From IMG/VR virus record IMGVR_UViG_3300021256_000097: DNA of 64,000 nt. One strand, written 5' to 3'. Below are positions 8,508-55,264 of this stretch, one piece after another (position 1 is the first letter of the stretch; the number at the start of each line of letters is the position of its first letter). The notes beneath the pieces were generated by a model, which was not told where the DNA came from, did no database searches, and worked only from the letters and a program-made list of their open reading frames with translations. A program made the position numbers and the translations under genes. This stretch comes from a virus.

Positions 8508-8517
8508 ACATATTATA
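8508..8517 (+). promoter_or_regulatory. Conserved phage promoter core ACATATTATA. The upstream element is TGTACT-N15.
   Basis: One instance of a motif seen more than 35 times directly upstream of an RBS and start codon. Confidence 0.6.
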
Positions 8518-27803: not shown

Positions 27804-28907
27804 ATGGACGAAATCAATGAAATCGTAAAAACATTGACAGAATGGCGGAATGCTTACTACAATGGTAGCCCAGTCGTATCAGACGCTGAGTTCGATGACC
27901 TTGAAGATAAGCTCAGACAGCTTGATCCAGATAACGAATACTTTAATGGAATTGGTGAAGATGAGCTGGATGGCTTTCCAAAAGCAAATCACACTATTCT
28001 TATGGGTAGCCAGGAAAAATGTAATACCGTTGAGGAAATTATCAAGAAGCTTAATCATTTTACTGGTAAAAAAGTTGCAATGCTTGTAGAGCCAAAATGT
28101 GATGGAATCAGTCTTGAATTGAACTACAAAGATGGAAAAGCAACAGCGCATATTACTCGTGGCAATGGTTATGTTGGTGATAACATTACTGTAAACGCTT
28201 CAAAAATGCAGGGTGTACCCGCGGGTATTCCTGTTTCGGAGGGTGTTGCTATTCGTGGCGAAATTATGCTGCTTCATTCTGATAAAGAAAAATATTTCCC
28301 AGAACTTAAGAACTGTCGTAATGGCGCTTCTGGTATTGCAAAGAATAAAGATGGAATCGGATGTGAGCATCTTACCGTTGTATGCTACGATTGCCAGTAT
28401 ACCGACGAGGATAAATCTTTCGGAACAGAAGCAAACAAACTCGACTTTCTTACTCAGTGTGGCTTTATGCGCGTAAATGCGGATATGGTTATTGCTGACT
28501 GTACAACTCCAGCTGGAATTAAAAAAGCTGCTGAAGATTTGATGGCAAAAATGAATGAGTTTACAATGACAGAACGTGAATATGACACTGATGGTGTTGT
28601 TGTTAAGCTCAACATTATCGATGACCACGATCTTCGTACAGAACTTCACCCAAAAACTCAGTGGGCCATTAAACCTGCTCGTGTAGAAGTTGAGACTACT
28701 CTTATCGATATTGAATGGAACATGACAAATGGTAGCCTGGTACCAGTAGCAATCTTTGAACCAGTTGTCCTGGATGGCGCAACAATCCAGCGTGCAAGCC
28801 TTGTAAATGTAGCAGAAATTGAACGTCTTGGCCTGTATATCGGCGCAAAGATTATGGTATCTCGAAGAAATCTTGTAATACCTAAAGTAGAGAGATTAGC
28901 TGCGTAA
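27804..28907 (+). CDS. ligA: NAD-dependent DNA ligase, N-terminal fragment (adenylation plus OB domain only)
   Basis: EPKCDGISLELNY (KxDG) and TRGNGYVGDNIT. It ends right after the OB-fold ...NLVIPKV, which matches LigA DVIPQV. Confidence 0.8.
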   Translation: MDEINEIVKTLTEWRNAYYNGSPVVSDAEFDDLEDKLRQLDPDNEYFNGIGEDELDGFPKANHTILMGSQEKCNTVEEIIKKLNHFTGKKVAMLVEPKCDGISLELNYKDGKATAHITRGNGYVGDNITVNASKMQGVPAGIPVSEGVAIRGEIMLLHSDKEKYFPELKNCRNGASGIAKNKDGIGCEHLTVVCYDCQYTDEDKSFGTEANKLDFLTQCGFMRVNADMVIADCTTPAGIKKAAEDLMAKMNEFTMTEREYDTDGVVVKLNIIDDHDLRTELHPKTQWAIKPARVEVETTLIDIEWNMTNGSLVPVAIFEPVVLDGATIQRASLVNVAEIERLGLYIGAKIMVSRRNLVIPKVERLAA

Positions 28908-31008: not shown

Positions 31009-31839
31009 ATGAATATTAAAGATTTTATCAAGGCAAATCCAAATGCGCAGAAATGGAATCTTCCATCAGTCTGTCCAGTTTGTGGAGCTGATCTTGAACT
31101 TAATGAAAATCATACAGACATCGTTTGTACGAATGAGGGCTGCAAATCAAAGCTTATCGGACGCTTAAAAAAGTGGGCTGAGAAACTTGAAATCAGAGAG
31201 CTTGCTCCTACAACTCTGGAAAAGTTCATTGATGGTGGTCTGATTAAGAATGTATCTGACCTTTATAAAGCAGACTTTTCTGTTATTGCAAATTGGCCCG
31301 GATTTGGTGAGCGTTCCGCTGAAATCTACAAGAAAAACATTTCAAAAGCAACAACTGCAACTCTTGCTCAGTTTATCGCAGGTTATAATATTGGTGATGT
31401 TGGTGAAAAAGTTGTTCAGAAGATTATTGATGCAAAAGGTATCCGCGAACTTTCTGAATTTGCAAATCTCAGAGCAGAAGATCTTGTTTGTGAAGGCGCT
31501 GGTATTACAACCACAAGAAAGCTTATTGATGGAATCTCAGCTGTCTGGGATGATATGCTTGAAACATCTAAGTACGTAGCAATCGAAGTACCAGCAGAAA
31601 AAGATTCTAACAAGCTCGCTGGAATGGTATTCTGCTTCACAGGAAAAGCTTGTCTTCCACGTCCGCAGCTTCAGGCAATGGCGGAAGCAAATGGTGGAAA
31701 GTGTGCTTCTTCAGTATCTAAGAATACAACTTATCTTGTAACTGATGATACAGACACTGGATCAAGCAAGAACAAGAAAGCTGCTGAGCTTGGTATCCCT
31801 GTAATCACATCAGAACAGTTCTTGGAGCTTGTAAAATAA
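31009..31839 (+). CDS. ligA: NAD-dependent DNA ligase, C-terminal fragment (Cys4 zinc finger, HhH, BRCT)
   Basis: CPVCGADL...CTNEGC zinc finger, HhH region, and BRCT (FCFTGK...LVTDD). It has its own promoter at 30983-30992 and its own RBS. Confidence 0.8.
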   Translation: MNIKDFIKANPNAQKWNLPSVCPVCGADLELNENHTDIVCTNEGCKSKLIGRLKKWAEKLEIRELAPTTLEKFIDGGLIKNVSDLYKADFSVIANWPGFGERSAEIYKKNISKATTATLAQFIAGYNIGDVGEKVVQKIIDAKGIRELSEFANLRAEDLVCEGAGITTTRKLIDGISAVWDDMLETSKYVAIEVPAEKDSNKLAGMVFCFTGKACLPRPQLQAMAEANGGKCASSVSKNTTYLVTDDTDTGSSKNKKAAELGIPVITSEQFLELVK

Positions 31840-32825: not shown

Positions 32826-32902
32826 ATCGGTTTTTATACTCTGCATAAACTATAAACATATAATATATGTAAACTAAAACAATTACTTTGGAGGTAATAC
32901 TT

Positions 32903-33895
32903 ATGATTATGTCAACTGAAAAGAACAAAGTTCTTACAAATGCAAGTGACGCAGAGACAAGAAACTTTACAATTGCTTGTAACGAAAATATTCTTGATAC
33001 CTTGTCAAGACGTCTTTACACAAACATTCCACGTGCTGTAATTCGTGAGCTTGTGTCAAATGCAATCGATGCAAATATTGAAGCTGGTGTTGATGAAAAA
33101 ATCCTGCTTCACCTGCCAAGCGGACTTGAGCCAGAGTTTTATGTTGAAGACCATGGTATCGGTATGAATGAAGAGACAATCTACAACGTTTATACTCAGT
33201 ATGGTAACTCAACTAAGAATGGCTCAAACAATTGTATCGGTGGACTTGGACTTGGTTCAAAAACTCCATTCGCTTACACAGACCAGTTTTTCGTAATTTC
33301 TTCAAAAGATGGTGTTAAGAATACTTTTGTCTGCTTTAGAAATGAGCAGGGAGAAGCTTGTATCACTAAAATGGCATCTGAAGCATGTTCTGAAACTGGT
33401 ACAAAGGTATCATTCCCAGTAAAGGAAAATGACATTCGCAGCTTTACTAACGAGGCTGTCATAACTTTACTCTTCACTATGAAGATGCCAGAACTTGTTG
33501 GTGAAAAGGATCGTTTCTTAAGAGTAGCTGGTGTTGAGTCTCTTGAAGAATATGAAGCACTTCGTAAAGAACTTGCTGAGAACACTTACATCACAAATGA
33601 AAAGCTGCGTTCACTCATCAACTACTCGTCTTCTTATGGTAAACTTATCGTTGAAATGGGCGGAGTTGCTTACAAAGTAGATTCTAACGAAATCTTCGAA
33701 GATGGTAACTACAATCCTGTTCTGGAATATATCTGCAAGAAAAGCGATCTTCAGGTATTCCACTTGCCAATCGGCGCAGTTCAGATCCAGTCTTCTCGTG
33801 AAGCGCTCAACTACACACGTTTCACAAAAGAAGCTCTTACTAAGCTGTTTATTCAGGAATTCTTGGCAGATGCTAAGAAGGTAATTGCAGCTTAA
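32903..33895 (+). CDS. GHKL-superfamily ATPase (Hsp90-like N-domain)
   Basis: RELVSNAIDA (N box), EDHGIGM (G1) and GGLGLGSK (G2). Confidence 0.6.
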   Translation: MIMSTEKNKVLTNASDAETRNFTIACNENILDTLSRRLYTNIPRAVIRELVSNAIDANIEAGVDEKILLHLPSGLEPEFYVEDHGIGMNEETIYNVYTQYGNSTKNGSNNCIGGLGLGSKTPFAYTDQFFVISSKDGVKNTFVCFRNEQGEACITKMASEACSETGTKVSFPVKENDIRSFTNEAVITLLFTMKMPELVGEKDRFLRVAGVESLEEYEALRKELAENTYITNEKLRSLINYSSSYGKLIVEMGGVAYKVDSNEIFEDGNYNPVLEYICKKSDLQVFHLPIGAVQIQSSREALNYTRFTKEALTKLFIQEFLADAKKVIAA

Positions 33896-35427: not shown

Positions 35428-35514
35428 GTTAAATAAGTTTTGAAAAAAGTTCGGAAGTTTTGTGCTTCCGAACTACTATAGACATATTATATATGTACAA
35501 TGGAGGTACACGTT

Positions 35515-36630
35515 ATGGAAAACAAAATGCGTTACATGGTAACATCGAATGGCTTGTCAGTATTCTTTGCTGGTAAGAAACCTTTTATGGTTGCAAAAGA
35601 CCATCCAAACTTCAATGCAATTCTTGAGGCTGTAACAGCTGATAAGGCTCCTTCTTATGAAGACATTGAAAAGTTGGCTGAGATCAAGAAGTCTTTGACA
35701 ACTCTGTCTTATGACAATGTTGAAATTGCTCTTGATGAAAATGACGAACTGATCTTGAAGCTTGACGGAAAAGTAACTGAAGTTCTTTCTTCTGCTCTTA
35801 TCGGCCGTTTGGTTGGTATGCTTCGTGAATCAGAAAGCCCACTCCGCAAGGCAGTATTCCAGTCATTCGCAAAGTTCATTTCGAACCTTTACAAGAATCC
35901 TTCTTACCGCTCTGTAAAGCAGATGTACGGCTTCCTTGAAGCAAACAACTTGCCAATCACTCAGAATGGTACATTCTTGGCTTACAAGAAAGTTCGCGGT
36001 GACTATTTTGACATTCATTCAGGCACATTCGACAATTCAGTTGGAAAAGTTGTTGAAATGCCTCGTAATCAGGTTGAAGACAACCCAGAAATCACTTGTT
36101 CACACGGCTTGCACGTTTGTTCATATGGTTACTTGAAACATTACTCATCAGCTTCTGATGACCGTATTGTAATCTGCGAAGTAAACCCAGCAGATGTTGT
36201 ATCAATTCCAACTGACTACGACAACGCAAAAATGCGTGTATGCAAGTACACTGTAGTTGATGAAGTTCCAAGCCACTTCACAGCACAGCTTTCATCTTAC
36301 GTTTACGGTAAGCATTCAGATGGCTGGATCAACGAGACTTACAAGAAGCTTGAAACACTCTTCAAGAAGTTCTTCGCTGTTGAGCATGTTGATTTTGATC
36401 ACTTGCCTAACACAATCAGCTATAACGACATGACACCACCAGTTATCGAAGACTTCTACAAAGAAGCAGAAGCTGTTGGCTTGAATGTTCCAACTAAGTT
36501 GAAGGACCTTTCTCTTGAAAAAGAATGTGTACCTACAATGAAGACAATGTTCCAGTGGCTCGCTAAGTACGACTCAAACTGGGTACGTCCTACAGCTGCT
36601 GACACAGAAGACGAAGCTGACGCTGAATAG
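35515..36630 (+). CDS. Hypothetical protein (372 aa)
   Basis: Promoter 35482-35491 and GGAGG RBS. The start was moved to the ATG after the RBS. Confidence 0.55.
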   Translation: MENKMRYMVTSNGLSVFFAGKKPFMVAKDHPNFNAILEAVTADKAPSYEDIEKLAEIKKSLTTLSYDNVEIALDENDELILKLDGKVTEVLSSALIGRLVGMLRESESPLRKAVFQSFAKFISNLYKNPSYRSVKQMYGFLEANNLPITQNGTFLAYKKVRGDYFDIHSGTFDNSVGKVVEMPRNQVEDNPEITCSHGLHVCSYGYLKHYSSASDDRIVICEVNPADVVSIPTDYDNAKMRVCKYTVVDEVPSHFTAQLSSYVYGKHSDGWINETYKKLETLFKKFFAVEHVDFDHLPNTISYNDMTPPVIEDFYKEAEAVGLNVPTKLKDLSLEKECVPTMKTMFQWLAKYDSNWVRPTAADTEDEADAE

Positions 36631-39603: not shown

Positions 39604-39676
39604 TCGGGAGTCGGCAAGCGGTAAGCCCCCGGCTTTTGGTGCCGGTATTCCACAGGTTCGAATCCTGTCTCCCGAA
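39604..39676 (+). tRNA. tRNA-Gln (anticodon TTG). CCA is not encoded.
   Basis: Acceptor tcgggag/ctcccga. Anticodon stem ccggc/gccgg with loop ttTTGgt. T-arm acagg-ttcgaat-cctgt. Confidence 0.7.
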
Positions 39677-39834
39677 CAAGGCCAATAACAGGCCGTATAA
39701 TAACATATTTACATAAAAAAGTTTTCAACTTTTTTCTCTCCTAAGAGCCCTATAATTTTTATAGGGCTCTTTTTTACTTTCTATAGTATTGTAGACATAT
39801 TATATATACAAAATAAATATATGGAGGCTTAAAA

Positions 39835-44339: not shown

Positions 44340-45026
44340 TGAAGTCTAGAATGTTTACAAACAATTTGTACTAATTTAATTATGATTAGTAATGAAGAGT
44401 TTATAAGCATTGTAGAAAAATGTCAAACAATGGCACTAGCTGCCAAAAAAGTTGGTATGGCCTATACTTCCTTTATTAGGAAGGCAAAAAAACTTGGTTG
44501 TTATAAACCAAATCAAGGCCATAAAGGTGTTAAAACTGGTCATCCATCAAATTGGATCCGGACAGAAGACATCTTAGCTGGTAAGTACCCACAGTATCAA
44601 ACATATAAGTTAAAAGCTAGACTTATAACTGAGGGGTATTTAGAGGACAAATGTTCTTTATGTGGTTGGGATAAAAAGCCAGAAGGAGCAAGATTTACTC
44701 CTTGTGAGCTTGACCATATAAATGGAAATCCAACGGATCACAGATTTGAGAACTTAAGATTGATTTGTCCTAATTGCCATTCTCTTACTGAGACATATCG
44801 TTTCAGAAGAGGTAAGACAAATGAGTCACAAGGTAGGAAACTCCTTGATGAGAATGAGGCTAATTCGACGAACCCTTAACGATAGTTAAAGCGTTATGGC
44901 AACGACGAGCTAAGCAAAATGTGTAGAGACTATACACCTCGTACCTAAACAGAAATGCATGGTAATGAAATAGTCCAGACCACAAACCTTTTGTTTGATA
45001 AGGGTAATGAAAGTTATGGTGGTAAG
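44340..45026 (+). mobile_element. Group I intron in the tRNA-Leu anticodon loop, carrying an HNH homing endonuclease ORF
   Basis: The 5' exon ends in U and the intron ends in G (ggtaag|aaaa). The IGS aagtc pairs with exon gactt. P7 R/S-like elements tagagacta (about 44925) and aatagtcc (about 44970) are present. The insertion site is the same as in the classic tRNA-Leu(UAA) intron. Confidence 0.7.
44382..44879 (+). CDS. HNH homing endonuclease (intron-encoded)
   Basis: CSLCGW...ELDHINGNPTDHRFENLRLICPNCHS is an HNH motif with zinc cysteines. Confidence 0.85.
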   Translation: MISNEEFISIVEKCQTMALAAKKVGMAYTSFIRKAKKLGCYKPNQGHKGVKTGHPSNWIRTEDILAGKYPQYQTYKLKARLITEGYLEDKCSLCGWDKKPEGARFTPCELDHINGNPTDHRFENLRLICPNCHSLTETYRFRRGKTNESQGRKLLDENEANSTNP

Positions 45027-45165
45027 AAAATCCTGTGCTCGCTAAGGGCGTACGGGTTCAAGTCCCGTCTCGCGCAATGCACAGTAAAGTCTTTTGAAAT
45101 AATAAAGGCCATGGGACACTTAAGCTGTACGCTTTAGCCTGCTTTTCTTTGGTGTAGCCCAAGTC

Positions 45166-45207
45166 GCGGATTGAGGTGAAAGATGGTTCGACTCCATCCG
45201 TTCCGCA
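45166..45207 (+). ncRNA. tRNA-like module with an acceptor-like stem and a T-arm but no D-arm or anticodon arm (tRNA mimic, possibly YrlA-like)
   Basis: gcgga...tccgc stem. T-arm gatgg-ttcgact-ccatc. Only 9 nt separate the 5' stem strand from the T-arm. Confidence 0.3.
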
Positions 45208-45574
45208 TACGTGGCATAGAATTGAGGAGTAAATTGATCCTATGTGCATTTAGTGGATATCCCTACTTGCGCAATAAAAATAGGGGATTTTGAACGATTT
45301 TGTGTCCGCATACGTCGAGGCGACGTCATATTGTAACAGGTATGACAGGCGGTGCAACTCTCGCTATGTATGCATAGTGTTCAGGCATGCCTAACACGAA
45401 TTGAAAATCGCCAGGAGTAATTGACGAAAATTACGCGCGTTAAAGTAGTTGATGAATTATACTGGGAGCCTTAGAAAAACAACTGAGCCGCACTTGGTTG
45501 CTAAGGTATTGGGACTCGTACCAATTGAATATCCTACGATAAAGGCAGGGATAGCCACAACATCCAACCTTTAT

Positions 45575-45659
45575 GTATCAGTGGTCGAGAGGTCGAAGAC
45601 AGCAGACTGTTAATCTGCCGAGCGAAAGCCCACCACAGGTTCGAACCCTGTCTGATACG
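45575..45659 (+). tRNA. tRNA with anticodon GTT (Asn-like) and an atypically long 16-nt variable region. Identity is uncertain.
   Basis: Acceptor gtatcag/ctgatac. Anticodon stem gcaga/tctgc with loop ctGTTaa. T-arm acagg-ttcgaac-cctgt. Confidence 0.5.
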
Positions 45660-46151
45660 CTAAAAATCCAGGATCTAATACCTGGTTAGAAGTGTATTAG
45701 AGACCTAATATGAGCGGATGGTTTTACCAGATGAAACTTGTATTAGAAGGCTATTACTTTACAAATACTGTACGCTTGTGTCAGTCCTTGCGTTAACGAT
45801 GCGCAGGTATAACGGCTGGGAAGGTTCGTAGAAAGCCTAAGCTTAGAGTACTATGCTCAATACCGTAAGTCCGTCGCCTCAAGTTTGATTCTACCTATTA
45901 TATGATAAGGGTCGACTGACAGCCTACGGAAGTTTAGGGATTGATAGTAGGTGACCAATTATACGAGTCGTAATCCCTTTATAAATAACCATTATATGGA
46001 AGAGTCCTTAGGGAATGGCCTACCGAAATGGTAACAATGGGAATTGAAGTACTATTGGGGAGTGAACCGATTATAGGAACATTGTAGTATAGTGGTATTT
46101 ATAAACGATTTTTGTTAGTTATGTTAGTTTTATACTTTATTTGGTAAGCTA

Positions 46152-46161
46152 ACATATTATA
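46152..46161 (+). promoter_or_regulatory. Promoter core ACATATTATA. It drives a transcript of about 260 nt that ends at the terminator at 46393-46424.
   Basis: Core motif with no ORF downstream. Confidence 0.55.
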
Positions 46162-46164
46162 AAT

Positions 46165-46428
46165 ATGAAATTATGCGTATAATATGAAAGTTGAAATTTC
46201 ATAAAATACGCTAATATAAATATAACAGAAAATGCTGTAGGATTAGGTTTACTTAGATTCTATTTTTGGTTTAGAAAAAACAAAGAGCCTATCCGATTTT
46301 TCGCTTTTCTTAATTTTGGAATTATATGTAAGCCGACTCCCTATTACCAAATCGGGACCCCTCCTTGTCGGATTCATATGAGACATAGTTACGGGAAGCA
46401 TGCGAATGCTTCCTTTTTTTTTATTTAT
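46165..46428 (+). ncRNA. Candidate small ncRNA, about 260 nt from promoter to terminator, immediately upstream of the Ro60-like gene (possible Y-RNA-like RNA)
   Basis: The unit is bounded by the promoter and the gggaagcatgcgaatgcttcc+T9 terminator. An internal 13-bp hairpin gcgtataatatgaaa/tttcataaaatacgc is present. No ORF or RBS. Confidence 0.35.
46393..46424 (+). terminator. Intrinsic terminator
   Basis: gggaagcat gcga atgcttcc plus T9. Confidence 0.7.
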
Positions 46429-46471
46429 AAAATTATTTAATAAACTTCAGTTTGAAGTGAGGAGAAATAAA

Positions 46472-47917
46472 GTGAGTAAGGTTAATCAGAAAGCCAGTGT
46501 AGCAGAAGCTAAGAAGGTTTATGTACCGGGCGTTAAGGAAGATGCAAGACGTACTCTTATGACTTGTCTCTTGTGGGAAGATGAATACTATGAAAATGGT
46601 GTTTCAATTGCTGACCGCCTTAGGGGATATGTAAAACGCCTTAGCGAGCAGGATTGTCGTGAATTGTTATTGGAAGCAAAGTTCCAGAACAAGCTTCGCC
46701 ACGCTCCATTATTCTGGGCTGTTCAGATGGCAAAAGAAGGAAAGCTTAAGGCAGACGATGTTGCAAAGATTTGTGACCGTGTAGATACAATGGCTGACCT
46801 TTTGGCTATTTACTTTGATGAAAACCCTCTTTCAGACTCAGAAAAGTCAAAGTGTTATAAAAACGGAAATCGTGTGCACCGTGATAACAAAGCGGTACCA
46901 AAAGCAATTACAAAGGGCCTTCAGAAAGCAATTGAAAACCCAAGATTCGACGAATACGCTTTTGCAAAGTATCGTCTTGAGGATAAAGCAATCAAGACTC
47001 GCGACGTAATTCGTCTTGCACACGTAAAGCCATCAACCCCAGAACGTTCAGCTTTGTATAAGAAAGTACTTGATGGCACACTTGCGACTCCAGATACATG
47101 GGAAGTAGCTATCTCTGCTGCAGGTTCAGACATGAACGCTAAGCGTGACGCTTGGACTCGTTTGCTTTCAGAGAATAAGCTTGGTGTATTGGCATTGCTT
47201 CGTAACCTTAATGGTATGAGCCGTGCAGGTGTTGACCAGGCTAAGATTCGTAAGGCAGTAAAAGCAGCTTCAATTGGTCGTGTACTCCCATTCCAGATTG
47301 TAACTGCTTCAAGACACGCGCCAGAATTGGCAGATGTATTGAACACAAAGTTCATGGAATCTGTTGAAAACGTTGAAAAGCTTGAGGGAGAATCTCTTGT
47401 ACTTGTAGATGTTTCTGGTTCTATGAATGCTCCATTGTCAGCTAAGTCTGATACAAAACGTGTAGACGTAGCTGCTGCTCTTGGAGCTCTTGTAAAGGAA
47501 GTAAGTAAGGGTAGCGTAATCTACGCATTCGACGACAGCCTTAGACCAGTATCAACTGACCTTGCTGGATTGCCACTTGTACGTGAGCTTTCAAGAAATG
47601 GTGGTTGTACTGCAGTAGCAGAGTGTACAGAAAGAGCTATTAAAAACTACAGAAATTCACATGGCGGACGTGATCCAGCTCGTGTTATTGTAGTAACAGA
47701 CGCTCAGGACAACTCTTCTTACAACCGCGGTTGGGGCTGTGAATACGATGTAGCACGTATGCCAAAGGTTCCTTATGGAACTGGTTACATTGTAAATGTT
47801 GGAGCTCAGAAGAATGGCGTTGAATACGCGCTTCACTCTGGCTGGATGACTGTTTACGGATGGTCAGACAATATTGTTAAGTACATTGCAGCTTTGGAAA
47901 ATGAAAGACGCAAGTAA
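46472..47917 (+). CDS. rsr: Ro60/Rsr-like protein (TROVE plus vWA)
   Basis: CLLWEDEYYENG (TROVE-like), ALLRNLNG (Ro60 ALLRNLG signature), and vWA MIDAS LVDVSGSM. GTG start after GAGGAG. Confidence 0.6.
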   Translation: MSKVNQKASVAEAKKVYVPGVKEDARRTLMTCLLWEDEYYENGVSIADRLRGYVKRLSEQDCRELLLEAKFQNKLRHAPLFWAVQMAKEGKLKADDVAKICDRVDTMADLLAIYFDENPLSDSEKSKCYKNGNRVHRDNKAVPKAITKGLQKAIENPRFDEYAFAKYRLEDKAIKTRDVIRLAHVKPSTPERSALYKKVLDGTLATPDTWEVAISAAGSDMNAKRDAWTRLLSENKLGVLALLRNLNGMSRAGVDQAKIRKAVKAASIGRVLPFQIVTASRHAPELADVLNTKFMESVENVEKLEGESLVLVDVSGSMNAPLSAKSDTKRVDVAAALGALVKEVSKGSVIYAFDDSLRPVSTDLAGLPLVRELSRNGGCTAVAECTERAIKNYRNSHGGRDPARVIVVTDAQDNSSYNRGWGCEYDVARMPKVPYGTGYIVNVGAQKNGVEYALHSGWMTVYGWSDNIVKYIAALENERRK

Positions 47918-51297: not shown

Positions 51298-51663
51298 GGG
51301 CCTGACTTTGGAATCGATTGGTATCAGAGTAGTCTATGTATCATGCACAGTGGTTATTGTACCCTAAAAGCAACGTAAGTAATCGACGCACAGAACGAAT
51401 ATGCAATGGCTGCGTAAGCAACCTAGCATCTAGAGACTTCGAGAGCTCTAGCGCTTGAACCAACAGATGTAGGTGGTATGGTTTTAAGTGTGGCTACTAC
51501 CTTCTAGGAAGCAGTGAGAGGCGGAGCGAGAGCTTGTAACTGTAACGACAATACTAGGGCAGAATCCGGTTGCCGGTCCCGAATCGAAAAAAGGCTTAAG
51601 CATGTAGAGAAGTACATATTCAAAAAGGTAAGCAAGACGAGAGTTCGAAACTCTCCAGGTCCA
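51298..51663 (+). ncRNA. ssrA: tmRNA (SsrA), standard one-piece form. The tag reading frame is (D)AQNEYAMAA-stop at 51385/51388-51417.
   Basis: The 5' end GGGCCTGACTTTGGAATCGATTGG matches tmRNA GGGGCTGATTCTGGATTCGACGGG. The conserved TAAGCATGTAG motif is present. The 3' tRNA-like end is gagag-ttcgaaa-ctctc plus acceptor caggtcc, which pairs with the 5' gggcctg. The ORF gca cag aac gaa tat gca atg gct gcg taa is present. Confidence 0.8.
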
Positions 51664-51689
51664 GTTCGGTAAATATAACTAATTTAAGT

Positions 51690-53679: not shown

Positions 53680-53703
53680 ATTCATACTTATCAGAAAATA
53701 ATC

Positions 53704-53713
53704 ACATATTATA
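53704..53713 (+). promoter_or_regulatory. Promoter core ACATATTATA. An untranslated leader of about 280 nt follows before the sigma-factor gene.
   Basis: Core motif. The leader contains hairpins gtcttcaatagatagaagac and ctcaaccttgagtgttgagg. Confidence 0.5.
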
Positions 53714-53995
53714 TTTATAGTTACGCGATTAAATACGCGTACACGGTTAATCGATAGCTGGTCACGCTATAGCAGAGCTGTCTTCAATAGATAGAAGACA
53801 AAGCGGTTTTAGAGGATGACTGCTGGAGGTTTATTCAATGCTAGAACGTTTTTTGTCTCTCAACCTTGAGTGTTGAGGAAAGGCAACAAATGGCGCGGAT
53901 TAGTACTTACCGCTTAAAATAATAAGTAACATTCTTAAATATATAGTCTTCTATTCTTAACACTCAAGGCGAGTAAATTAAGATAGGAGACGCGA

Positions 53996-54697
53996 GTGTT
54001 TGAAGAAAAAACTGATTATGAGCTTTTCGCTCAGTACATTAAAAACCCAGGAGCAAATGAGGGAGACAAGAAAGCTGCTCTAACTCAACTCTGGATGCGT
54101 TATGAGGCGCTTACACACAAGATGGGACACGTACTTGAAGCGAGACGCAACAAAGGTAATTTCTACGGACTAGAAACAGAGACTTACTATTCCGATTTTT
54201 ATGATGCTTTCTTGAAGGCAGTTGATGGTTTGCAGCTCAGTAAAATTAAAACTGATCCAAAGACTTGGAAGTTCTGGATTCAGTATAATGGCTACTTGCG
54301 TTCTGCTAATCGTGATAAGATTAATGATTATTGCCGCATAACAAAGCATGAAAGACCAATTACGGTTACAAATGAAGATGGAGAGGAAGTCAGCATTGCA
54401 GATTTATGTGGTTCAGAATATTCTGCTACAATTGAAGATGATTACTTTAAGAGTGAAGAATCAGTAGTTCTTAAAGAAGCAATCAAAAATGCTTATTCAA
54501 AGTTTTCCGATAAGCAGAAGAAGATTTGGTCAATGCGTGAGGGTGGCGATACCTTTACAGCAATAGCTAAATCAATGAATGTATCATCTAGCTCCATTAA
54601 ATATCAGATGAATCGCATTAAAGACGTTTTACGCAGTGAGTTAAACGAGTCAAATAAGCGACATAACACTGAAATTCGTCCTGCTTGCTTAATGTAA
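53996..54697 (+). CDS. Sigma-70-family sigma factor (regions 2 and 4; small, FliA/ECF-like)
   Basis: FLKAVDGLQLSK...WKFWIQYNGYLRSA (region 2.2-2.3-like) and the C-terminal HTH FTAIAKSMNVSSSSIKYQMNRIKDVL (region 4). GTG start after AGGAG. Confidence 0.7.
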   Translation: MFEEKTDYELFAQYIKNPGANEGDKKAALTQLWMRYEALTHKMGHVLEARRNKGNFYGLETETYYSDFYDAFLKAVDGLQLSKIKTDPKTWKFWIQYNGYLRSANRDKINDYCRITKHERPITVTNEDGEEVSIADLCGSEYSATIEDDYFKSEESVVLKEAIKNAYSKFSDKQKKIWSMREGGDTFTAIAKSMNVSSSSIKYQMNRIKDVLRSELNESNKRHNTEIRPACLM

Positions 54698-54701
54698 AAT
54701 A

Positions 54702-54736
54702 AAAGCCCAGACTTAATGCCTGGGCTTTTGTTTTTA
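54702..54736. terminator. Bidirectional terminator between convergent genes
   Basis: aaaagcccagacttaatgcctgggctttt. Confidence 0.65.
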
Positions 54737-54743
54737 TTGGTGG

Positions 54744-54878
54744 CTAACGCCAGAGTAAAACTTCTGGGTTATTTACGATCTTGGTAGCTGCTCCTTCGAT
54801 TCCAGCTTTCCAATCATAAGTTCCATTCTTAATAGCTTTTTTAATAGCTTTAACCTTTTCTGATTTGATTTTTGGCAT
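54744..54878 (-). CDS. FlgM-like anti-sigma peptide (44 aa), not in the ORF track
   Basis: EKVKAIKKAIKNGTYDWKAGIEGAATKIV matches the FlgM C-terminal sigma-28-binding region ([27 protein letters not shown]). It has its own AGGAGG RBS and a minus-strand ACATATTATG promoter at 54891-54909. Confidence 0.4.
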   Translation of the reverse strand: MPKIKSEKVKAIKKAIKNGTYDWKAGIEGAATKIVNNPEVLLWR

Positions 54879-54928
54879 TATACCAATTCCTCCTGTTATA
54901 CATAATATGTATATATCTATGCAGAAGT

Positions 54929-55264
54929 CTAATTTTTTATATTTTCTTTTAAGAAATTACGATAAGCTTTATTAAAGATAGCTTTATTTACTCCGAGAGT
55001 AGCATAATTTATGCTAGTTGTACCAGGTGCCGGAGGTGGAGTAACATCGAGCTTATCAAATACTTTGTGAATAACTTTCTTTTCTGACTCAGAGAGTTTA
55101 TTAAAATCAAATCCTACTATAGATAACGCATCTTCATGTACTTTATACACATTACGGTTCGCTATTTCGCCCTTAGCATTTCTATACTTGAATGCTACCA
55201 TTTTTGAATCATCAGCTACGGCTTCTTCAGCAACTTGTGTTGAATCTAATACTTCTTCTTCCAT
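54929..55264 (-). CDS. Hypothetical protein, a paralog of 61320..61589. The true start is probably the internal M22.
   Basis: About 40% identity to the + strand paralog (NAKGE...VTP.P....S.DYA.LG). Confidence 0.5.
   Translation of the reverse strand: MEEEVLDSTQVAEEAVADDSKMVAFKYRNAKGEIANRNVYKVHEDALSIVGFDFNKLSESEKKVIHKVFDKLDVTPPPAPGTTSINYATLGVNKAIFNKAYRNFLKENIKN

Follow-up and report, generated by a model that had tools for sequence, protein, structure and literature searches.

The 64,000-nucleotide (nt) stretch of viral DNA analysed here (IMG/VR virus record IMGVR_UViG_3300021256_000097; hereafter the window) contains, arranged tail to tail, a gene for a sigma-70-family transcription factor and a very small minus-strand gene, the product of which resembles the sigma-28-binding end of the flagellar anti-sigma factor FlgM and is referred to below as mini-FlgM. 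The analysis makes it on the whole probable that huge rumen phages have taken over this sigma-binding end of FlgM and dropped the secretion signal, thereby acquiring a constitutive anti-sigma factor that could not be relieved by export, and that would serve either to silence the flagellar regulon of the host or to brake the phage's own sigma factor, which is of the extracytoplasmic function (ECF)-like type. The features on which the argument depends are as follows.

53996-54697, plus strand: gene for the sigma-70-family factor, 233 amino acids (aa), GTG start, ribosome-binding site (RBS) AGGAGA at 53985-53990.
54701-54729, both strands: bidirectional intrinsic terminator common to the two convergent genes, with a stem of 12 pairs, 6 of them G-C, closed by a 5-nt loop, and with T-runs on either strand.
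54744-54878, minus strand: mini-FlgM open reading frame (ORF), 44 aa, MPKIKSEKVKAIKKAIKNGTYDWKAGIEGAATKIVNNPEVLLWR.
54894-54889, minus strand: mini-FlgM RBS AGGAGG, 8 nt before the ATG.
Within 54879-54933, minus strand: mini-FlgM promoter, with downstream element ACATATTATG at 54910-54901, upstream element TTAGACTT at 54932-54925, and a 14-nt spacer.

Comparison of the window mini-protein with Pfam returned FlgM (PF04316) over residues 2-24 at 26.4 bits versus a gathering cut-off of 25 (E = 8.3e-6), whereas TIGR03824, the full-length FlgM model, yielded 22.6 bits versus a cut-off of 40.75, a low score of the kind to be expected of a fragment. Profile searches assembled a family of 27 clusters distributed over many independent contigs, 37-65 aa in length with most members at 37-49 aa, and 22 of the 25 members scanned matched Pfam FlgM at E <= 0.01 (best E = 3.3e-9). 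With the family profile as query, the only meaningful chain in the PDB was FlgM of Pseudomonas aeruginosa (9wsf_B, residues 76-105 of 111; E = 3.7e-4), and hhalign paired the family with nine bacterial FlgM proteins at 97.8% probability over 36 columns comprising both helices, an alignment that is not fully independent as the bacterial set had been selected by motif. A PDB search conducted with the single mini-protein, the query being off by one codon, gave no match, and PHROGs contained no family matching the mini family at E <= 0.01; weak matches to DUF7366 and phrog_555 did not recur in the family as a whole and were disregarded. The likeness of the 44-aa peptide to the C-terminal sigma-28-binding helices of FlgM, proposed in an earlier note made from the letters of this DNA, is therefore borne out by the Pfam match, by the family members, by 9wsf_B and by hhalign.

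The relevant bacterial complex is known in structural detail: a fragment of P. aeruginosa FlgM consisting of residues 61-107 (47 residues, two helices) was co-purified and crystallised with sigma-28 (PDB 9WSF), the full-length protein binds sigma-28 with a dissociation constant of 2.2 nM, the inhibitor is anchored mainly on sigma domain 4 (sigma4) through V77, I80, I84 and V96, A97, L100, L101 while also touching sigma3 and the 3/4 linker, and its N-terminus is variable (PMC12784957). When transferred through the 9wsf_B alignment, these contacts fall on V9, I12, I16, A30, A31, I34 and V35 of the window mini-protein, all of them hydrophobic. Across the phage family K13, A15, I16, T20, Y21 and A31 vary little or not at all, and the FlgM signature K-x-x-[IL]-K-x-A-I-x-N-G-T-Y is essentially unaltered, as would be expected if the operative constraint were still sigma-28 binding. 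In the mini-protein 5-7 residues precede the first conserved helix, and the N-terminal half of FlgM is missing; in bacteria that half is disordered, contains the flagellar type-III export signal and mediates export.

The phage proteins thus share with bacterial FlgM (PF04316; P. aeruginosa 9WSF, Butyrivibrio) the same two C-terminal helices, the K-x-x-IK-x-AI-x-NGTY signature and the positions that contact sigma4, but differ from it in several respects. They are 37-49 aa long (up to 65), as opposed to approximately 85-110 aa in bacteria (95 aa in Butyrivibrio); they are without the disordered N-terminal half and its type-III export signal, so that relief by secretion would not be available; in most of them two additional residues separate the helices and the C-terminus forms a conserved aromatic tail (…LLWR or …ELDMW); and they are phage-encoded, transcribed from a phage promoter and situated outside any flagellar locus. 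Rather than forming part of an flgM-flgN-flgK cluster, of which the Butyrivibrio locus L040 provides a comparison, the mini gene lies beside the phage sigma gene and small genes of no assigned function. Judged by its sequence, the mini-protein is a homologue of the two C-terminal, sigma-28-binding helices of FlgM, and as such appears to be the minimal sigma-binding module of that protein.

Pairwise ratios of nonsynonymous to synonymous substitution rates (dN/dS) among mini-FlgM genes were 0.05-0.3, with synonymous sites near saturation. Equivalent hairpins separate the sigma and mini genes in relatives, and the mini-gene promoter and Shine-Dalgarno (SD) sequence are both kept in relatives L017 and L022. 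Because of these dN/dS values and the conserved promoter, RBS and terminator, mini-FlgM is judged to be a real gene under purifying selection; the promoter and RBS of its own, together with the shared bidirectional terminator that the earlier note had ascribed to it, are sustained both by the coordinates listed above and by their conservation in relatives. Two further mini-FlgM genes, in relatives L057 (4772-4891, minus strand) and L059 (1388-1504, minus strand), had been overlooked by public gene calls. Neither has an SD sequence, and in each just 5-6 nt separate the end of a -10-like element (CCATATTATT or ACATAGTATT) from the ATG, so that their mRNAs are probably leaderless.

The sigma factor proved to be a very divergent protein. 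It matched PHROG sigma-factor families with E values of 5.3e-10 and 1.2e-9, and TIGR02937 over residues 70-216 (E = 1.7e-7; 31 bits, under the 42.9 cut-off), and its Pfam scores were sub-threshold (Sigma70_ECF 16.3 versus 21.1 bits; Sigma70_r4 12.8 versus 24.1 bits), placing it under every curated Pfam and NCBIfam cut-off. An exhaustive HMMER search of 1.84 billion representative proteins recovered only 146 relatives (cluster representatives) at E <= 1e-3, and the family is therefore small and isolated. Relatives begin at the same MFEEKTDYELF, but with ATG in place of GTG. An AlphaFold2 model built from an alignment of 61 relatives taken from that search was confident, with a mean predicted local distance difference test (pLDDT) score of 92.7, whereas an earlier alignment of 12 close homologues had given a pLDDT of 58 and a sigma2 domain that was not usable. 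When the confident model was compared with the PDB by Foldseek, the top 50 neighbours were all sigma factors, three of them Bacillus subtilis integrative models without a protein name; 4g6d and 3wod were also among the structural neighbours. PDB sequence searches were by comparison uninformative, the close-family sigma profile giving no match and the deep profile only generic helix-turn-helix matches in the C-terminal domain.

The modelled protein consists of sigma2 (approximately residues 1-118), a short linker with a beta-hairpin (119-145) and sigma4 (approximately 146-225), and displays both the sigma2 fold and the sigma4 helix-turn-helix characteristic of the sigma-70 family. The region 2 and region 4 helix-turn-helix assigned to this gene in the earlier note are consequently supported by the PHROG and TIGR02937 matches as well as by Foldseek, and the profile similarity anticipated for both products was found, the sigma protein matching PHROG sigma families and the mini-protein Pfam FlgM. 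The sigma3 domain is absent and no specific similarity to sigma-28 proteins (FliA-SigD-WhiG, group 3) was detected, for which reasons a sigma-28-like identity was rejected. On profile and model evidence the phage protein is a real yet very divergent sigma-70-family factor, and its predicted architecture, sigma2 plus sigma4 with no sigma3, is ECF-like.

Both genes carry promoters of the class that predominates in the window. The motif had originally been described as TATACT-N15-ACATATTATA; a recurrent promoter-like motif is indeed present, but alignment of the 32 exact ACATATTATA sites corrected its form to the longer TTTRKRCTT-N14-ACATATTATAWATGTA, a geometry shared by the mini-FlgM promoter. 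The exact sites span positions 8508 to 63909, with 31 of the 32 on the plus strand straight before ribosome-binding sites, and when up to one mismatch was allowed 59 sites were recorded versus 12.2 expected, a total attained in none of 100 shuffles. The spacer is frequently CTACAG-like, ACATA and TATGT form a 5-bp inverted repeat flanking TTATA, and the upstream element is unlike the -35 box of sigma A. Sites are dense from about 26 kb onwards and sparse in the first 26 kb, where their scarcity suggests a different promoter class. The sigma factor, put forward in the earlier note as the recogniser of these promoters, is a candidate for that role: the sole link between the protein and the motif is that motif enrichment co-occurs with the sigma gene in related genomes, a co-occurrence that arises because those genomes share ancestry. 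The genome, estimated below at ~573 kb, may carry further sigma genes.

Between its promoter and its start codon the sigma gene has a long leader, in which the following features were recognised.

53681-53713, plus strand: promoter of the sigma gene, with upstream element TTCATACTT at 53681-53689 and downstream element ACATATTATA at 53704-53713.
53714-53995, plus strand: structured sigma leader of about 280 nt.
53838 (ATG) to 53876 (TGA), plus strand: upstream ORF of 12 codons, MLERFLSLNLEC, with SD sequence GGAGG at 53825-53829.
53946-53960 paired with 53978-53991: stem predicted by RNAalifold, covering the sigma RBS AGGAGA (53985-53990).

In seven of the eight sigma clades the leader contains an upstream ORF, 11-12 codons long and preceded by a strong SD sequence, the encoded peptide differing from clade to clade. 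RNAalifold predicted a conserved stem that would sequester the sigma SD sequence, with covariation support that is thin as it derives from four or five independent sequences, and in the minimum-free-energy fold of the window leader (-47.8 kcal/mol; z = -4.68) the region of the upstream ORF is base-paired with that of the SD sequence. The left arm of the sequestering stem is moreover complementary to the 3' end of the upstream ORF. These predicted structures suggest that translation of the upstream ORF may open the sigma start site, and the arrangement is reminiscent of erm/cat-type translational coupling or attenuation.

Examination of related contigs established that the association of the two genes is recurrent but not obligatory. 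Five clades, that of the window and those at 86, 75, 73 and 70% sigma identity, have the mini gene convergent with the sigma gene; in two of them gene callers had overlooked the mini gene, and in one a 74-aa gene is inserted between the pair. By way of contrast, no mini gene was found within 4-5 kb of the sigma gene in three clades at 64-67% identity, and no sigma homologue within 5 kb of the mini gene on four other large phage contigs, which also had little or no enrichment of the ACATATTATA motif. The existence of sigma genes with no adjacent mini gene, and of mini genes with no nearby sigma gene, means that the two are separable. A 111-aa minus-strand gene (54929-55264) considered as a possible partner was set aside, as it gave no family hits and has no counterpart in relatives in which the sigma/mini pair is retained.

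The exact 44-aa mini-FlgM was located on 13 metagenomic contigs. On one of these, scaffold_1 of ENA assembly ERZ28612970 (loci L001 and L002; 940,564 bp), the sigma/mini locus is present twice with a spacing of 573,277 bp, from which it follows that the scaffold is a concatenated assembly of about 1.64 copies of a ~573-kb genome; contigs bearing relatives measure 553,723, 429,464 and 578,814 bp. The sample names SHIW14, XIEF21 and TONG22, in our interpretation, suggest ruminant gut studies. The window itself encodes rIIA-like and rIIB-like proteins, a head-maturation protease, a DnaB helicase, clamp loaders, a split NAD-dependent ligase, two tRNAs and a transfer-messenger RNA (tmRNA), and is therefore assigned to a huge phage. 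Among GenBank phages there was no match either to 3 kb of the sequence (megablast) or to the two proteins (tblastn), and a scan of IMG/VR with the sigma alignment found no relative.

Evidence on the host came from two directions. When 185,579 species genomes were scanned with a sequence pattern, 21 matches were confirmed, of which 14 were Butyrivibrio FlgM genes in flgM-flgN-flgK loci, and over the first helix the mini-protein and Butyrivibrio FlgM are identical at 12 of 18 positions, so that the closest bacterial relatives of mini-FlgM are, as far as the alignments indicate, the FlgM proteins of rumen Butyrivibrio. In Butyrivibrio sp. FCS014 two contigs (L046 and L048) had identical FlgM ORFs, representing either a duplicated flgM locus or an assembly duplicate. 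The second line concerns translation signals: GGAGG occurs 47 times on the plus strand of the window and 6 times on the minus strand, and an SD core of at least 5 nt precedes 44 of the 92 window ORFs versus 1.2% of random positions. Such strong SD use fits a Firmicute host rather than one of the Bacteroidota. A Lak-type Prevotella megaphage, considered on account of the ~573-kb genome and of one Prevotella-labelled metagenome-assembled genome (MAG; see below), is disfavoured because of this strong SD use; Lak phages have a G + C content of about 26%, compared with 36% in the window.

The explanation that best accommodates these results is that of a transcription-takeover pair in a huge rumen phage, the two genes having separate promoters and terminating convergently. 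The phage sigma factor presumably steers host core RNA polymerase to a phage promoter class, its translation apparently being gated by the leader upstream ORF and the RBS-sequestering stem. Mini-FlgM would be a truncated protein of host origin, reduced to the pair of C-terminal helices with which FlgM clamps domain 4 of sigma-28, and which has probably lost with its N-terminal half the means by which bacterial FlgM exits through the finished hook-basal body. In a motile Firmicute, of which Butyrivibrio is an example, it could then bind FliA/SigD and hold that factor in a closed, inactive state, with the effect that flagellin, motility and chemotaxis genes would be turned off and core polymerase freed for phage transcription. 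That mini-FlgM is a non-exportable anti-sigma-28 acting on host FliA/SigD is accordingly advanced as the preferred but tentative reading, one in which we infer the identity of the bound sigma factor, the host and the physiological consequence. It is favoured because the FlgM signature and contact residues are kept, because a motile rumen genus has the closest relatives, and because the two phage genes are separable; that the phage sigma factor is not itself sigma-28-like also speaks for it.

Several observations weigh against this reading. The recurrent tail-to-tail adjacency of the pair, maintained while the flanking genes vary among the five clades that keep it, favours the phage sigma factor as the target, genes for sigma and anti-sigma factors being classic neighbours. 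The similarity to Butyrivibrio FlgM is strong in the first helix only, and the enrichment of Butyrivibrio among the scan matches is biased since the scan was seeded with the motif itself. Moreover, one 46-aa family member in NCBI nr (MEE3415781.1; cluster P0015) comes from the MAG labelled Prevotella sp. The label is at odds with ribosome-binding sites of Firmicute type and with the similarity to Butyrivibrio FlgM, and reflects either mis-binning or a hint on the host. Binning of phage contigs is unreliable and Prevotella very common in the rumen, yet the label retains some weight. Prevotella has neither flagella nor sigma-28, and if it were the host, the proposal that host sigma-28 is bound would fail.

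The strongest alternative, which we consider somewhat less likely than the preferred and itself tentative reading, is that the two phage products are a cognate pair, in which mini-FlgM has come to bind domain 4 of the phage sigma factor encoded next to it and so limits or times its activity; were that factor to read the ACATATTATA promoters, of the class from which the mini gene is also transcribed, the outcome would be a negative feedback comparable to the sigma-28-dependent transcription of flgM. The convergent arrangement and common terminator recur in five sigma clades (100, 86, 75, 73 and 70%) despite differing flanks, the shared promoter class leads one to expect co-expression, sigma4, the main anchor of FlgM, is a fold present in the phage factor, and in a non-flagellated Prevotella the phage sigma factor would be the only sensible target. 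Set against these points are the mini genes elsewhere, on phage contigs that have no sigma homologue within 5 kb of them, the sigma genes with no adjacent mini gene in the 64-67% identity clades, the lack in the phage factor of sigma3 and of a sigma-28-type 3/4 linker, both of which FlgM contacts, and the retention of a canonical FlgM signature showing no divergence toward a new partner. This alternative would lead if the host were without flagella.

It is improbable that the FlgM-derived helices have instead been adapted to domain 4 of host sigma A, or bind several sigma factors non-specifically, and so block -35 recognition and flap binding in the manner of T4 AsiA, ORF67 of Staphylococcus aureus phage G1 and gp39 of a Thermus phage. 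Binding of sigma4 is a strategy to which phage proteins have repeatedly turned (PMC3950348), 4g6d and 3wod occur among the neighbours of the sigma model, and the window promoters, having no sigma-A-type -35 element, could tolerate a blocked sigma A region 4; yet the mini-protein has no similarity to AsiA, ORF67 or gp39, and the residues that it keeps are those typical of sigma-28 binders. Finally, the notion that the mini-ORF is a non-functional relic of a host flgM gene once captured, or a chance ORF with a lysine- and alanine-rich helix mimicking FlgM, to which its very short length and a Pfam score just 1.4 bits over the cut-off might lend some colour, is essentially refuted by the 27 clusters on many independent contigs, by dN/dS values of 0.05-0.3 with saturated synonymous change, by the conserved promoter, RBS and terminator, and by the FlgM matches of 22 of 25 members and of hhalign.

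The preferred reading, of an anti-sigma factor directed at host sigma-28, may be placed beside the systems already described. Phage anti-sigma factors in the literature found target either housekeeping sigma (AsiA, ORF67 and gp39, from T4, S. aureus phage G1 and Thermus phage P23-45, respectively) or RpoS (gp70.1 of Pseudomonas phage PaP3), and have no sequence similarity to cellular anti-sigma factors. Like these proteins, mini-FlgM is a small phage product expected to bind a sigma factor, probably at domain 4 of the latter, and thereby to reprogramme transcription in the host (PMC3950348; PMC5035744). Unlike AsiA, ORF67, gp39 and gp70.1, to which it is unrelated in sequence, it is visibly derived from a cellular anti-sigma factor, and unlike the first three its likely target would be an alternative sigma factor (sigma-28) or the phage's own, rather than the housekeeping one. 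When compared with phage sigma factors such as SPO1 gp28, T4 gp55 and the Bacillus phage SigF-like proteins (PHROGs 351, 1740 and 1190), the present factor differs in belonging to a small isolated family below curated cut-offs, and in having a leader upstream ORF, an SD-sequestering stem and an FlgM-like partner gene. It resembles ECF (group 4) sigma/anti-sigma modules in its sigma2-sigma4 architecture and in the small putative sigma-binding protein next door, but that neighbour is not of the ASD or ZAS type and is not co-transcribed; it is convergent and has a promoter of its own, and not every relative keeps the two genes linked. No earlier description of a phage FlgM was found in the full-text literature searched, PHROGs or GenBank phages, only automatic Joint Genome Institute labels being encountered, and that literature yielded no report of a phage anti-sigma factor directed against a flagellar sigma factor. 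Phage sigma factors and phage anti-sigma factors are known kinds, and what is new is the unusual origin of this anti-sigma factor.

Elsewhere in the window, the following RNA genes were recorded.

39604-39677: tRNA-Gln(TTG).
45575-45660: tRNA-Asn(GTT).
51298-51666: tmRNA gene (Rfam RF00023, 54.1 bits; ARAGORN tag peptide DAQNEYAMAA).

The two halves of the NAD-dependent DNA ligase are encoded separately, at 27804-28907 and 31009-31839, 2.1 kb apart with other ORFs between, the N-terminal half corresponding to positions 8-380 of phrog_3869 and the C-terminal half to positions 377-653, and the rIIA-like (32888-33895) and rIIB-like (35500-36630) genes are much shorter than their own family profiles. 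A TROVE/Ro60-like RNA-binding protein is encoded at 46400-47917 (phrog_850, E = 9e-36; Pfam TROVE in precomputed calls), and the mostly non-coding ~1.5 kb upstream of it (44880-46400), which contains tRNA-Asn and two promoter motifs, is a candidate site for Y-RNA-like partners; Rfam returned nothing there at the gathering threshold.

The significance of the sigma/mini pair lies in the apparent domestication by a phage of a piece of a cellular anti-sigma factor, cut down to a minimal binding module of about 40 residues, and in a system that is readily testable in that it involves two small proteins and defined promoters. If the target is the phage sigma factor, the FlgM fold would be retargetable to a sigma factor other than sigma-28, and the pair would represent a phage-borne sigma/anti-sigma timer. 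If the target is host sigma-28, mini-FlgM would be a natural minimal inhibitor of that factor and would give the phage direct influence over the motility, chemotaxis and flagellin synthesis of bacteria of the gut and rumen, with reallocation of resources, exclusion of flagellotropic competitors and altered host behaviour as possible consequences.

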